Counted from the first letter of the stretch, positions 21,755 to 25,694 are shown. The stretch: 64,000 nt of DNA from a bacterium (GCA_030427205.1 JAUHXC010000011.1:108016-172015); one strand, 5' to 3'. Made by a program: numbers and translations. Notes: a model not told the origin generated them from the sequence alone.

Positions 21755-22855
21755 CTAGAAGGTGCCCACCAGCCCGGTGTGCAGCATATGGGCGTCGGGG
21801 AAGTCCGAGAATCGCCAGTACTCGTAGTTCAGCTTCATCTTGATGCCGGTGGTCGGCACGAGATTCAGCCCGGCCGTGCCCCGCAATATCGTGGAGTCGG
21901 TCGAGGGCAGCGCGGCGCCGAGCAGCAGCGGGCCCGCCCGGCGGAAGCCGTCGAAGCGGGCGAGCCACTCCACGATGCCCGACAGCGGGCCATCCACCTG
22001 CAGGTAGAAGCCCTCCCGCTGCACGAACAGGTCTCTGAGGCGCTGCTGGAACTGCTCGGGCGCGTCGGGGATGGCCGTGCGGCGGAACATCGCCTCGCCG
22101 CGCACGTTGAGCCGGCCGACGCGGGTGTAGAGGTCGACGCCGACCATCAGGAAGTCGAGCTCTTCGGCCTCGTCGTAGAAGCCCCACATCGCGCTCGCGC
22201 CCAGCGAGAGCCAGCGCCAGGCCTGAATGGGCAGCCGGGGGAACGCCAGGGTCAGCCGCCCGCCGACGGTGGGGCTCTGGTTGTTGTCGGCGTAGAAGAC
22301 CTGCCGGCTCTGCACGAAGTCGAGGTCGGCCACCGCCGCGCTGCCCTTGAGCCCCGAGACGGCGTAGGCGTTGTAGGCCAGCTCGACCTTCTCGCCGCGA
22401 AACGTGCCGAAGAGCTCGACGCCGTTGTCGGGATACGGCTCGGGCACGATGGCCAGGTTGAACTCGGCCCGGCGCAGCATGCGGCCCATCTCGTAGGGCA
22501 GCGGCTTGGTCGCCGAGCGGTGGTTGGCGGCGTCGTGGCGCAGGTAGAACTCGCCGAAGGGCACCGGGAAGCGCCCGAAGCGCACGTTGAACGCGTCGTC
22601 GACGAACCAGTCGACGTAGGCCATGTCGGCGGTGAAGTCGTGGCAGCCGTAGCAGATCTTGGCGCTGGCGCTGACGCTGTCGCCGACGTCGGCGACCACC
22701 TTGAGGGCCGCCTCGGCGTTGAGGCCCTTCATGGTGGCCCCCAGCGCGGCTTCTTCTTCCTCGTTGGCGGCGAAGAGCGTCGGGTGGTGCAGGTAGACGC
22801 TGCCGGCGACGTTGACGTCGCCGAGCAGCCCGGCGACGAGCAGGAGACCGATCAT
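21755..22855 (-). CDS. outer-membrane beta-barrel protein with N-terminal CxxCH (Cyc2-like fused monoheme cytochrome-porin candidate)
   Basis: A signal peptide is followed by CYGCH at about residue 67. Beyond that, alternating amphipathic strands end in HTGLVGTF, a terminal aromatic typical of beta-barrel OMPs. Its start overlaps the upstream gene's stop by 4 nt. Confidence 0.55.
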   Translation of the reverse strand: MIGLLLVAGLLGDVNVAGSVYLHHPTLFAANEEEEAALGATMKGLNAEAALKVVADVGDSVSASAKICYGCHDFTADMAYVDWFVDDAFNVRFGRFPVPFGEFYLRHDAANHRSATKPLPYEMGRMLRRAEFNLAIVPEPYPDNGVELFGTFRGEKVELAYNAYAVSGLKGSAAVADLDFVQSRQVFYADNNQSPTVGGRLTLAFPRLPIQAWRWLSLGASAMWGFYDEAEELDFLMVGVDLYTRVGRLNVRGEAMFRRTAIPDAPEQFQQRLRDLFVQREGFYLQVDGPLSGIVEWLARFDGFRRAGPLLLGAALPSTDSTILRGTAGLNLVPTTGIKMKLNYEYWRFSDFPDAHMLHTGLVGTF

Positions 22856-23160
22856 CGCTGCGCCTCCCGCCGATGGTGGTACTCGAGGAACTCGGCGATC
22901 GCCCGCTGGTCGGCCGCGTCGATGCCGGCCCCCGGGTGGCGCGCCATGCGCCGCACGTAGGCCTTCCAGCCGCCGTCGGCCACCCGGGCCTGGATCGGGC
23001 GCTCGAGGCCGTGGCAGCGGCTGCAGCGGGTCTCGAAGATCTCGTACTTCGCCTGCATCTCGGACGGATAGCCCGAGACGTCGAGGGTATTGGGCGCCCC
23101 GGCGCAGGCGGCGAGCGCGGCCGCCGCGAGGGCCACGAAGAACAGCGCGGCGCGCATCAT
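22852..23160 (-). CDS. small c-type cytochrome-like lipoprotein
   Basis: The lipobox is LAAC and there is a single canonical CSRCH heme motif. It is 102 aa long. Its ATGA overlaps on both sides. Confidence 0.6.
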   Translation of the reverse strand: MMRAALFFVALAAAALAACAGAPNTLDVSGYPSEMQAKYEIFETRCSRCHGLERPIQARVADGGWKAYVRRMARHPGAGIDAADQRAIAEFLEYHHRREAQR

Positions 23161-23654
23161 GGGCGGGCCCCTTCGGCGATCCAGTCGATGATGATCTGCT
23201 TGTTCTCGGCGGTCAGCGGCGAGCGCGAGAACGGCATGCGCGAGCCGAACGGCGGGTCGTCGCTGATCTTGCCCACCAGCAGGCTGGCGCAGGGGTCGCC
23301 GGGCACGATGTCGTCGCTGCCGCCGCGGCGGCCGCCGAGCAGGGCCGACTCGACGGTGCGCAGGTCGAGGCCGCCGATGGTCATGCCCGCGCCGCCCTCG
23401 TCGACGTGGCAGCTGCAGAAGCCGCGCAGCACGGTGCCGGTCACCTCGGCGAAGGTGACGTCGGTCTCGGGGTCGCTGTCGACGAGGTCGCAGGTCTCGC
23501 CCGGCTCGCCGTCGCCGCCGCCGTCGGGCACGATCGGCTCGAAGCCGGGCACGGGGATGCGGTCGGGGCCGACCTCCGGGTCCAGCTCGCCGCAGCCGAC
23601 CCCCAGCGCGAGCAGCGCGCAGGCGGCGACGAGGCCGCCGACAAAGCCCGTCAC
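23157..23654 (-). CDS. PSCyt1-like (Planctomycete-type cytochrome c domain) lipoprotein with variant CSCH motif
   Basis: GTG 23654 follows GGAGG with a 4-nt spacer. The lipobox is LGVGC. GFCSCHVDEGGAGMTIGGLDL...GDPCASLLVGKI...RMPF...IIDWIAEGA matches the PSCyt1 pattern. The Cys spacing is CxCH, not CxxCH. Confidence 0.6.
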   Translation of the reverse strand: MTGFVGGLVAACALLALGVGCGELDPEVGPDRIPVPGFEPIVPDGGGDGEPGETCDLVDSDPETDVTFAEVTGTVLRGFCSCHVDEGGAGMTIGGLDLRTVESALLGGRRGGSDDIVPGDPCASLLVGKISDDPPFGSRMPFSRSPLTAENKQIIIDWIAEGARP

Positions 23655-25465
23655 GGGGCCTCCAATCGCAGGGGCAGGCTCACCCGGATGTCGCCGGTGT
23701 CCGGGCGGCGGGTGAGCCGGTTGATGCGGCGCAGGACCCGGGTGCCGCAGTCGACGAGCGCCGGCTCGCCGTCGCCGCCGAAGCCGCCGAAGAAGCCGTC
23801 GGCGTCGATGACGAAGCGCACCGTGGCCCGCCGGCCGGCCTTCAGCCCGCTCTTGCCCTCGACGCACGACCGGATGTCGCCGAAGCCGCCGGAGACGGTG
23901 CGCCGGATCTGACGGGTGCTGGCGCCGCCGACGACGTCGAGGCGGCCGAAGACCAGCTCGGGTGGGCCGACCGGCTCCGGCGGAGGCGGCGGCGGCGCGG
24001 GCTCGGCGGGGGGGGCCACGGCGGCGGCGGGGGCGACCGCGACGGGCGCGGGCTCGGGTGCCGGCTCGGGCGCAGGCTCGGGCTCGGCGACCGGCTCGGG
24101 CGGCCGGGGCGCCTCGGGCTCCGGCGCAGGCTCGGGCGCGGCGGGCTTCGCAGCAGGTCTGGGGGCGGGCTTCGGCGCGGCGGGCTTCGGCGCCGGCTTC
24201 GGCGCGGCGGGCTTCGGCGCGGGCTCGGCCCGCTTCGGGGTCTCGACAGCCGGCGCGGCGTCGGCCACCGGGGCCTCTGGCGCGGGCGCTGCGGCCACAT
24301 CGGTGTCGGCCGCGCCTTCGGCCTTCGCCGGGGCCGTATCGGGCGCCTGGGCGCCGTCGGGGGCCGTGGGCGGCACGTTCGCGCGGGTCTCGATGGCTTT
24401 GCTGGCCACCGGCGGCTGATCGGGGGTCGGCGAGGGCGGCGGATCGCCGGCGCCGACCACCGCGAAGACGCCCACCGCCGCGCCGAGGATCGCGACGATC
24501 ACCGCGGCCAGCAGCGGGCTGCGCCCCTTGGCCGGCGCAGGCGGCGCCGCGGCGGCCGACTCGCGGGCGGCGGCGGCCAGCGACTCGACGAAGTCGGAGA
24601 TCTCGGCGAAGCGCGCGTCGGGGTCGCGGGCCATGCCGCGCATCACGACGTCGACCATCTTCCGCGGAACCCGCGCCGGATCGACCACGTCGCCGAGCGG
24701 CGCGGGCTCTTCGGTGAGCTGGGCGGCGATGAGCTGCAGCGGCGAGAGCCGGTCGAACGGCGAGCGGCCCGACAGCAGCTCGTAGGTCATCACCGCGAGG
24801 GCGTACTGGTCGGCCCGCCCGTCGAGCGGCCTGGCCAGCGCCTGCTCGGGGGCCATGTAGCCCGGGGTGCCGATCATCTGGCCGTCGCGGGTGAGCCGGG
24901 TATCGGTGTCCTGGATGCTCTGGGCGATGCCGAAGTCGAGCACCGTCAACACCTCGCCGTCGGTGCGCTGCTCGACGAGCACGTTCTCCGGCTTGAGGTC
25001 GCGGTGCACGACCCCGGCCGCGTGGGCCGCCCGCAGCGCGTCGCCGATCTGGCGCACCATGCTCACGACCCGGGCCGGATCGAGCGGCGACTCGGCGTCG
25101 CCGAGCGCTTTGAGGTCGCGGCCGTTGATCAGCTTCATCACCACGTACGGCCGACCGTCTTCGGTGATGCCGAGGTCGTAGACGTCGATGATGTGCGGGT
25201 TGCCCAGCCGGGCGGCGGCGCGGGCCTCGCGGCGCAGGCGCTCCATGGCCTTGGGGTCGTGGGCCAGCATCGGGGCCAGCAGCTTGACCGCCACTTCGCG
25301 GCCGAGCTCGACGTGCTCGGCGCGGAAGACCTGGCCCATGCCGCCGCCGCCGAGCTTCGCGACGAGCCGATACGGCGTACCGGGCAACCGGTCGCCGGGG
25401 CGGGCGAGCTGGATCGAAGCGGTGCGCTGAGCGCCGTCTTGCGGGTCGGGGTCGGTATCGCTCAC
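23651..25465 (-). CDS. Ser/Thr protein kinase, single-pass membrane protein with Pro/Ala-rich periplasmic linker and uncharacterised C-terminal domain
   Basis: GGGGMGQVF...VAVK, HRDLKPEN, DFG, TPGYMAPE. The TM segment is LLAAVIVAILGAAVGVFAVVG. (PAPKPAA)n-like repeats follow. Confidence 0.9.
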   Translation of the reverse strand: MSDTDPDPQDGAQRTASIQLARPGDRLPGTPYRLVAKLGGGGMGQVFRAEHVELGREVAVKLLAPMLAHDPKAMERLRREARAAARLGNPHIIDVYDLGITEDGRPYVVMKLINGRDLKALGDAESPLDPARVVSMVRQIGDALRAAHAAGVVHRDLKPENVLVEQRTDGEVLTVLDFGIAQSIQDTDTRLTRDGQMIGTPGYMAPEQALARPLDGRADQYALAVMTYELLSGRSPFDRLSPLQLIAAQLTEEPAPLGDVVDPARVPRKMVDVVMRGMARDPDARFAEISDFVESLAAAARESAAAAPPAPAKGRSPLLAAVIVAILGAAVGVFAVVGAGDPPPSPTPDQPPVASKAIETRANVPPTAPDGAQAPDTAPAKAEGAADTDVAAAPAPEAPVADAAPAVETPKRAEPAPKPAAPKPAPKPAAPKPAPRPAAKPAAPEPAPEPEAPRPPEPVAEPEPAPEPAPEPAPVAVAPAAAVAPPAEPAPPPPPPEPVGPPELVFGRLDVVGGASTRQIRRTVSGGFGDIRSCVEGKSGLKAGRRATVRFVIDADGFFGGFGGDGEPALVDCGTRVLRRINRLTRRPDTGDIRVSLPLRLEAP

Positions 25466-25544
25466 GGCCGCAGGATACGGCCTCGCTGCCCGTTGGGCCA
25501 GCGCAGCCTGTCGCGGGGTGGACCGCGAACGGGCGAGGGGCGGA

Positions 25545-25694
25545 TCAGCGATCCAGGTCGGCGTCGGTGATGCGGTCGAGGGTGGCCTCGACCTCGGCGT
25601 CGATCGAGCCGATGGCGGTCGGCGCGGCGACGCTGAAGCCGGCGCCGATGAGGCCGAGGAGCAACGAGGCGGTGATGGCAGCGACCCAGCGCAT
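25545..25694 (-). CDS. small secreted peptide (49 aa), hypothetical
   Basis: ATG follows a GGAGA Shine-Dalgarno. A signal-peptide-like MRWVAAITASLLLGLIGAGFSVAAP is followed by an acidic tail. The gene lies 79 nt upstream of the kinase. Confidence 0.35.
   Translation of the reverse strand: MRWVAAITASLLLGLIGAGFSVAAPTAIGSIDAEVEATLDRITDADLDR

Follow-up and report, generated by a model that had tools for sequence, protein, structure and literature searches.

A porin-like barrel with an internal CxxCH motif, encoded with two cytochrome-like lipoproteins and a Ser/Thr kinase in Myxococcota

Introduction

To our knowledge, Cyc2 is the only characterized monoheme cytochrome-porin. Cyc2 is widely used as a marker of microbial iron oxidation (PMC8406198, PMC7029218). 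In the proteins from Acidithiobacillus ferrooxidans and Mariprofundus PV-1, a signal peptide is followed by an N-terminal cytochrome domain with a CxxCH motif and then by a 16-strand barrel that resembles OprO and OprP (Keffer et al. 2021; PMC8406198). Two signatures flank the motif: AxPxFAR[Q/K][T/Y], five residues upstream, and PxL, four residues downstream (PMC8406198). Here, we describe a four-gene unit that encodes another putative heme-bearing porin. The unit lies in a bacterial DNA stretch of 64,000 nucleotides (GCA_030427205.1 JAUHXC010000011.1:108016-172015), which we will call the window; all positions are counted from its first letter. The four genes encode a membrane Ser/Thr kinase, a PSCyt1/FoxE-like lipoprotein of the monoheme type (ps), a small class-I-like c-type cytochrome lipoprotein (sc), and an outer-membrane barrel (omp).

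Two other described systems resemble parts of this unit. FoxE is the Fe(II) oxidoreductase of Rhodobacter ferrooxidans SW2, with His/Met ligation and a stabilizing disulfide (PMC10654088). GltG and GltJ, from the gliding machine of Myxococcus, have a long disordered periplasmic segment that ends in a domain similar to the C-terminal domain (CTD) of TonB, and they bridge the inner and outer membranes (PMC11761067).

The four-gene system appears to be uncharacterized and widespread, and it appears to combine the cytochrome-porin principle with a new signaling connection. In the open-access literature, we found nothing specific about a heme-in-barrel porin or about a cytochrome-porin from Planctomycetota or Myxococcota. 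Our preferred reading, to which we give a probability of roughly 45%, is that the unit encodes an envelope-spanning module with three hemes that is tethered to the Ser/Thr kinase and reports extracellular redox conditions or iron to phospho-signaling.

Results

The CxxCH motif of omp follows three predicted strands

In the AlphaFold2 (AF2) model of omp, 16 strands are joined in alternation by short turns and long loops, and the best structural match is OprP. The protein also matches Porin_O_P (PF07396 in Pfam) with 30.1 bits, against a threshold of 20.9, over residues 73-231 only. Its N-terminus is hydrophobic, and there is a single CxxCH in the polypeptide. A first-pass annotation, which was made from the sequence of the window alone, had called omp a porin-like beta-barrel, and the model and the family match bear this out. 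The same annotation had ascribed to omp the architecture of Cyc2, with an N-terminal CxxCH fused to the barrel, and this we do not find. In the model, three strands (residues 13-28, 46-57, and 61-69) precede the motif, which closes strand 3, so no separate cytochrome domain comes before the first strand. Also, neither signature of Cyc2 is present: regular expressions for AxPxFAR[Q/K][T/Y], and for PxL downstream of CxxCH, each matched 0/88 omp orthologs and 0/223 family proteins. The window reads CYGCH-DFTADMA.

Classical porins have both termini in the periplasm. Given this, and given the alternation of short turns and long loops, CYGCH should lie at the extracellular end of strand 3, at loop 2, and residues 96-143 should belong to loop 3, which in porins folds inward. 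Conservation within omp is highest in this loop. Among 22 omp sequences, with identities down to 40%, C68, G70, C71, H72, H112, M123, and M126 are invariant. In strand 3, S62, S64, K66, and C68 alternate with V61, A63, A65, I67, and Y69; this polar/apolar pattern suggests that C68, next to Tyr69 of the aromatic girdle, points into the lumen. The CxxCH is found at 88/88 omp loci and, across all protein sets, in 291 of the 292 family members that are sufficiently complete. As the first-pass annotation required for its reading to stand, the motif is conserved among orthologs, and the same is true of sc (68/68; see below).

Planctomycetota encode natural fusions of the cytochromes and the barrel

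A profile search of 1.84 billion representatives gave 911 matches with E of 0.001 or less. These included a second class of proteins, with 490-840 amino acids, that match from loop 3 onward. Each begins with a signal peptide, in some cases followed by a PSCyt1/ps-like domain; then come one to four sc copies and a barrel with its own internal CxxCH. The named fusions belong to Planctomycetota, and their annotation goes no further than "cytochrome c" or hypothetical. When we aligned the two subfamilies with hhalign, the probability was 100% (E = 9e-45), and both the CxxCH and the loop 3 motif Y-x-M-G lined up. The AF2 model of one fusion (predicted local distance difference test score, pLDDT, of 81.2) has helical N-terminal domains and then 16 strands, and the top structural matches are again OprO and OprP. 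M123 is conserved in both subfamilies; because it alone among the candidates is, Met123 is the likely distal ligand of the putative heme.

These natural fusions argue strongly for joint action of ps, sc, and omp and for placing the cytochromes, which are N-terminal in the fusions, toward the periplasm. In four of the fusions (P0187, P0164, P0170, and P0198), two to four tandem sc domains precede the heme-barrel; P0187, with 839 amino acids, has four. The tandem copies suggest a periplasmic heme chain whose length can be tuned.

ps is related to FoxE, and sc resembles small cytochromes c

The ps protein of the window scores 21.7 bits against PSCyt1 (PF07635), for which the gathering score is 22. 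When a profile of the ps orthologs was compared to the PDB, it matched FoxE (5mab; E = 4.7e-16, to both heme domains) and hydrazine synthase alpha (E = 6.8e-8). In the alignment to FoxE, the C..CH, the methionine of RMP, and the C-terminal helix W-I-x-x-G-A are all in register. By these profile alignments, ps is homologous to the Fe(II)-oxidizing FoxE.

Instead of the canonical CxxCH heme site, the ps of the window has CSCH, which had been put down to either a base-call problem or a degenerate, non-heme fold. Among 78 orthologs, the motif is CxCH in 40, CxxCH in 37, and Cx4CH in one, so the first Cys floats. Since CxCH occurs naturally in 40/78, an error in base calling is ruled out. In a stricter scan, the CH and the FoxE-aligned Met, about 58 residues downstream, were kept in 76/76 orthologs, which makes a degenerate non-heme fold unlikely. 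A second pair of Cys (C55 and C122 in the window) is present in 38/39 of the CxCH forms versus 24/36 of the CxxCH forms. We also considered whether the CxxCH forms make up for a missing sc, and found only a weak tendency (12 CxxCH versus 4 CxCH among the loci that lack sc).

In an alignment of sc orthologs with the sc domains of the fused relatives, C46, C49, H50, W65, and M72 are invariant. Single-sequence matches of sc to Pfam and NCBIfam fall under the family cut-offs. The profile matches the heme domain of quinohemoprotein amine dehydrogenase (1jju; E = 1.7e-10), a cytochrome c from Chlorobium (3a9f; E = 5.8e-9), and SorB (2blf; E = 1e-7). Judging from these matches and the invariant residues, sc is a genuine small cytochrome c fold of the His/Met type, with a putative heme attachment site that is CxxCH in all 68 orthologs. 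The conserved N-terminal IDVSxYP of sc was considered as a TonB-box-like element and dropped, as it is also present at L006, a related locus without a kinase.

The kinase is predicted to have a long periplasmic arm with a TonB-like end

The kinase matches Pkinase in Pfam with 138.7 bits (E = 3e-40) and, by its sequence, is a membrane Hanks-type Ser/Thr kinase with the full set of catalytic motifs. It had been described as having a large periplasmic domain. The C-terminal part is indeed predicted to be periplasmic, but it consists mostly of a linker of about 160 residues that is 63% Pro and Ala, and only the last 100 or so residues form a globular domain.

In this tail, a pair of Cys (C534 and C573) and a PDTG motif are invariant among the orthologs. 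The tail from L003 scores 30.5 bits (E = 3e-7) against NF033768, the C-terminal domain of AgmX/PglI, for which the cut-off is 40. Among 38 orthologous tails, 28 match NF033768 (E of 0.01 or less), 7 match GltG, and 1 matches TonB_Cterm. Profile matches to the PDB are weak (E = 0.1-0.7), and nearly all are to the CTDs of HasB or TonB. The tail looks like a domain of the AgmX/PglI/GltG/TonB-CTD kind.

Gene order is conserved across Myxococcota

In the window, the four genes are on the minus strand and overlap by 4 nucleotides at each stop/start junction: GTGA at 23651-23654 (kinase and ps), ATGA at 23157-23160 (ps and sc), and ATGA at 22852-22855 (sc and omp). The tight coupling that the first-pass annotation described can thus be read directly from the sequence. 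The GC content at third codon positions (GC3) is 0.94-0.98 in all four, which indicates that they are real coding regions, and there are GGAGG-like sites upstream of the starts of ps and omp. The four genes are probably co-transcribed. At 74% GC, the scan for promoters and terminators was uninformative.

Relatives of the window's omp number 52 at the cluster level, with 40-93% identity. A query of the Polyangiales type gave over 2,033 clusters (at 90% identity) with E of 1e-20 or less, and every named cluster is a "hypothetical protein." When we scanned one genome per species, we found the family in 305 species. The best 80 of these 305 are almost all labeled as Myxococcota: Polyangiales, Haliangiales, Kofleriaceae, Nannocystaceae, Bradymonadia, Labilithrix, Byssovorax, and Sandaracinaceae. 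Among the genomes with the cassette are metagenome-assembled ones labeled Labilithrix, Haliangium, and Byssovorax.

Custom hidden Markov models showed that most of the Myxococcota loci have their genes in the order kinase, ps, sc, omp. The linkage to the kinase was counted on the 46 loci with enough flanking sequence. A strong kinase is present on the same strand in 39/46, another 4 have a helix-linker-tail protein whose kinase domain is degenerate or replaced, and 3 have neither. The adjacency of kinase and cassette thus extends well beyond the window, as had been expected of a real association. HRDxKxxN and DFG are kept in 41 of the 51 open reading frames that hold both a kinase and a tail. 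Downstream of omp, several loci encode another kinase with such a tail, and about 16 loci lack sc.

There are also variants. The partner proteins at L047 (3768-5912), L058 (2551-4833), and L080 (2449-4848) have lost the HRD, as in pseudokinases, while keeping the helix, the Pro-rich linker, and the TonB-like tail. At L079 (3173-5167), the helix, linker, and tail are kept and the N-terminal domain is something other than a kinase. The order is ps, omp, sc at L006 (1297-5544) and at L036 (5262-8059). At L006, a HAMP-SpoIIE (PP2C) phosphatase follows the cassette instead of a kinase, a small upstream protein appears STAS-like by eye, and an EB_dh heme-domain gene lies beside the locus. At L036, a gene for a multiheme cytochrome with five CxxCH is immediately upstream. 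In 12 loci of the closest clade (L001 9141-9752, L005 7104-7874, and L009-L018), omp is directly followed by a gene for a ferritin-like lipoprotein (Ferritin_2/DUF4439) with a twin-arginine translocation (Tat) signal. Neither the window nor its nearest relative, L008, has this gene, and most of the wider family lacks it too. In the window, clpS and clpA are found 73 nucleotides downstream of omp, and they also follow omp at L001 and L005.

An open reading frame of 49 codons with a hydrophobic N-terminus had been noted just upstream of the kinase gene. It does exist, and its composition is coding-like (GC3 of 0.94), but it is kept only in the closest relative, L008 (68% identity over 47 amino acids, within DNA of 69.5% identity). 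It is absent from the other loci that we compared. We therefore have no support beyond L008 for including it, and its membership in the unit is doubtful.

The features of the unit are collected in Table 1.

Table 1. Genes of the unit in the window, the upstream open reading frame, and features of the encoded proteins
Feature	Position (nt)	Residues (aa)	Strand	Remarks
Upstream open reading frame	25545..25694	49	minus	hydrophobic N-terminus; upstream of the kinase gene; GC3 0.94; GGAGA-like site upstream
Kinase gene	25465..23651	604	minus	GTG start
Kinase, catalytic domain	24608-25372	32-286	minus	VAVK 58-61, HRDLKPEN 154-161, DFG 177-179, APE 205-207
Kinase, transmembrane helix	24446-24520	about 316-340	minus	single hydropathy peak
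Kinase, Pro/Ala-rich linker	23966-24445	341-500 (~160)	minus	63% Pro+Ala
Kinase, C-terminal domain	23654-23959	~503-604 (~100)	minus	TonB-CTD / AgmX-PglI-like; C534, C573, PDTG
ps gene	23654..23157	165	minus	PSCyt1/FoxE-like monoheme-type lipoprotein; GTG start
ps, lipobox		Cys21	minus	
ps, CSCH	23406-23417	80-83	minus	
ps, RMP	23232-23240	139-141	minus	holds putative axial Met
ps, Cys pair		C55/C122	minus	
sc gene	23160..22852	102	minus	small class-I-like c-type cytochrome lipoprotein
sc, lipobox LAAC		Cys19	minus	
sc, CSRCH	23011-23025	46-50	minus	
sc, invariant residues		W65, M72	minus	
omp gene	22855..21755	366	minus	outer-membrane barrel; C-terminal GTF (terminal Phe)
omp, CYGCH	22640-22654	68-72	minus	outer end of strand 3 / loop 2
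omp, loop 3	22427-22570	96-143	minus	highly conserved; holds candidate distal ligand M123

Other genes near the unit

Directly upstream of the unit is a gene for a Cys-rich protein of 1259 amino acids (26822-30601, minus strand), with repeated MopE-type motifs that are putatively metal-binding and a Gly-rich C-terminal half. A CPBP/Rce1-like membrane protease is encoded upstream as well (26091-26900, minus strand). About 10 kb from the cassette, at 35395-36021 on the plus strand, there is a classical ferritin-domain protein (Ferritin in Pfam, E = 3.7e-40). A 339-codon open reading frame at 38777-39796 (minus strand) has a sub-threshold match to Pkinase (26 bits versus 31.7) and may encode a pseudokinase. 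Two other open reading frames have unusual pairs of domains: 47766-49124 (plus strand) pairs an S-layer-homology domain with a Peptidase_C39-like domain, and 42880-44565 (minus strand) pairs a Hint domain with a hydrolase similar to chlorophyllase and to platelet-activating-factor acetylhydrolase.

Discussion

A proposed route from the cell surface to the kinase

We propose the following scheme. The exported omp would receive one covalent heme at C68 and C71, with H72 as the proximal ligand, and would insert into the outer membrane as an OprP-like porin of 16 strands. Hanging in the lumen beneath the in-folding loop 3, at the outer end of strand 3, the heme would likely have Met123 as its sixth ligand. 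The FoxE-like ps and the His/Met cytochrome sc would attach to the periplasmic face, and their hemes and that of the barrel would make up a short chain. On the other side of the periplasm, the kinase would have its active catalytic domain in the cytoplasm, a single helix in the inner membrane, and a Pro/Ala linker long enough to cross the periplasm, so that the TonB-like end domain, with its invariant pair of Cys, could contact the outer-membrane complex. The redox or occupancy state of the surface heme chain, as set by extracellular Fe(II) or another redox-active solute, would then be reported to phospho-signaling in the cytoplasm. The analysis shows how the genes are arranged and conserved, which folds are predicted, which proteins are homologous, and that natural fusions exist. 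In this scheme, we infer the attachment of the heme, its position and ligands, the formation of the complex, the contact with the kinase, and the nature and direction of the signal.

We favor a sensory role because the signaling partner is nearly always present in Myxococcota and is swappable: it can be a kinase, a pseudokinase, or a PP2C phosphatase. A redox- or metal-related module that is coupled to phospho-signaling, as the first-pass annotation suggested, remains the best reading of the locus. A broader proposal would combine several parts: a family of heme-in-barrel porins that is common to Myxococcota and Planctomycetota and distinct from Cyc2, an outward-exposed barrel heme, signaling of surface redox conditions or iron via the cytochromes to a kinase with a TonB-like arm, and CxCH as a site for heme c. 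We consider this joint proposal less likely than not. As a by-product of the surface redox-signaling scheme, CxCH would be a natural heme c site, perhaps with a single thioether.

Several observations weigh against a three-heme signaling module. The presence of heme in ps, sc, and omp is read from motifs and models. For a CxCH site in particular, open-access full-text searches returned no report of an attached heme c. From the dimensions of the barrel, we estimate that a heme at the rim would be roughly 25-30 Å from the periplasmic face, a long way for a single electron-transfer step if no cytochrome enters the lumen. The signal-like segment of the window's omp (residues 1-12, nt 22820-22855) has about 12 residues and no basic residue (MIGLLLVAGLLG, followed by DVNVAGS). 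This short, uncharged segment is a trait of the window's clade, and the more distant relatives of omp have canonical signal peptides of 20-30 residues. A longer N-terminus for the window's omp was rejected: the 118 open codons upstream have no ATG, GTG, or TTG, so M1 at 22855 is the only start. The tail of the window's kinase, on its own, scores only 11.8 bits against NF033768 (E = 0.19; the cut-off is 40). Our scan of the locus in the window found no recognizable terminator between omp and clpS/clpA, so the transcription unit may be larger than four genes. Finally, no kinase or other signaling gene is found near the fusions, whose neighbors are unrelated housekeeping genes. Because the Planctomycetota fusions stand without a signaling gene, the module's basic job needs no kinase. 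We read the kinase link as an addition in Myxococcota.

Alternative explanations

The main rival to a sensory module is a metabolic electron conduit, which would also fit the forms in Planctomycetota that lack a kinase. The heme-porin and the cytochromes would oxidize Fe(II) or another donor, outside the cell or in the periplasm, and feed the electrons into the respiratory chain, or they would reduce an external acceptor; the kinase would only regulate the flux or respond to it. There are parallels with Cyc2/Cyc1 and with FoxE. The relationship of ps to an Fe(II) oxidoreductase argues for a conduit, as does the OprO/OprP-like fold that omp shares with what is reported for Cyc2. So does the genomic setting of the fusions, which are self-contained and surrounded by housekeeping genes, without a sensor in the vicinity, and the multiheme cytochrome gene at L036 and the EB_dh gene at L006 also point this way. 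However, ps and sc are predicted to be membrane-tethered lipoproteins and not soluble shuttles, and there is no oxidase, bc1 complex, or other electron sink in the cassette or among its conserved neighbors. Also, 43/46 of the Myxococcota loci encode a signaling protein with a periplasm-spanning tail, which would be unexpected for a plain respiratory module. On balance, we consider a conduit unlikely.

Another possibility is a protective or homeostatic heme protein at the cell surface, which would scavenge or detoxify peroxide, NO, or radicals driven by Fe(II), or would handle iron in the envelope, while the kinase adjusts a stress response. The Tat-signal ferritin-like lipoprotein that is encoded directly after omp at 12 related loci would suit such a role, and so would clpS/clpA after omp in the window, L001, and L005. 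Yet neither the window nor most of the wider family has the ferritin-like gene, and scans with Pfam and NCBIfam found no peroxidase-type features. Six-coordinate hemes with His and Met are typical of electron carriers, not of catalysts, which also counts against this idea. We consider it quite improbable. That omp is an ordinary porin for phosphate or other anions, with the CxxCH as a structural disulfide or metal site and with functionally unrelated cytochromes as neighbors, is very improbable: Porin_O_P is its sole Pfam family and OprP its best structural match, but that 30-bit match is limited to residues 73-231, the His is as invariant as both Cys in 291/292 members, and the motif co-occurs with cytochrome c domains, adjacent or in the same chain, in two phyla.

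Implications

A second monoheme porin design, seemingly unrelated to Cyc2, would broaden the range of proteins to look for in studies of extracellular electron transfer. Screens for Cyc2 that are based on its motifs would not recover the omp family, which is found in Myxococcota and Planctomycetota of soil and water and has over 2,000 protein clusters at 90% identity. Myxobacteria have many orphan kinases, and the near-obligate coupling described here suggests a concrete input for one of them, a Ser/Thr kinase with a TonB-like arm. If the signaling scheme is true, it would be a new kind of cell-surface signaling, in which an outward-exposed heme in the wall of a porin is read by a eukaryotic-like Ser/Thr kinase, and a route across two membranes that needs neither sigma/anti-sigma pairs nor histidine kinases. 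Also, the alternation of CxCH and CxxCH in ps is a natural experiment on the sequence requirements for attaching heme c.

Comparison to known systems

The barrel of omp resembles the phosphate-selective porins OprP and OprO (Porin_O_P) in its predicted fold and in its 16 strands, with OprP as the best structural match. But omp is just 16% identical to OprP, which has no heme motif, and loop 3 of omp has an invariant sequence of its own (GRFxxPFG...KPLxYxMG).

Like FoxE (PDB 5mab), with its His/Met ligation and its disulfide, ps keeps the His, the Met, and an extra pair of Cys. Unlike FoxE, which is a diheme protein with two domains, ps has a single domain (165 amino acids) and is a predicted lipoprotein, and about half of its orthologs have CxCH. 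The neighbors of ps are the kinase, sc, and omp; no foxY or foxZ adjoins it.

The layout of the kinase is that of GltG, GltJ, TonB, and HasB: a cytoplasmic domain, a single membrane helix, a long Pro-rich linker, and an end domain of about 100 residues that is TonB-CTD-like. In contrast to those proteins, the cytoplasmic part is a Hanks-type kinase, the end domain carries the invariant pair of Cys and the PDTG motif, and the unit in the window has no adjacent motor genes of the ExbBD, TolQR, or AglRQS type.

Two further kinds of system invite comparison. In MtrCAB and in PioAB/MtoAB, electrons cross the outer membrane via a barrel with a partner that spans the periplasm, as might occur here, but those barrels have 26 strands and sheathe decaheme proteins (PMC8406198). 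In signaling of the FecA-FecR type, a signal crosses the outer membrane via a barrel, again with a periplasm-spanning partner, but the components are TonB-dependent receptors and anti-sigma factors, without hemes or Ser/Thr kinases.

The closest parallel is Cyc2. Like omp, it is a single outer-membrane polypeptide with one CxxCH and a 16-strand barrel, OprO and OprP are the closest solved structures for both, and small periplasmic cytochromes are the partners. The differences are that the CxxCH of Cyc2 is in an N-terminal domain with both signatures, while that of omp is within the barrel and has neither; that the most conserved part of the omp family is loop 3 and not an N-terminal domain; that the partner cytochromes of omp are lipoproteins or N-terminal fusions; and that no linkage to a kinase is reported for Cyc2. 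omp may work like Cyc2, but the position of its motif and the signatures set it apart, and it is not to be classed as Cyc2.

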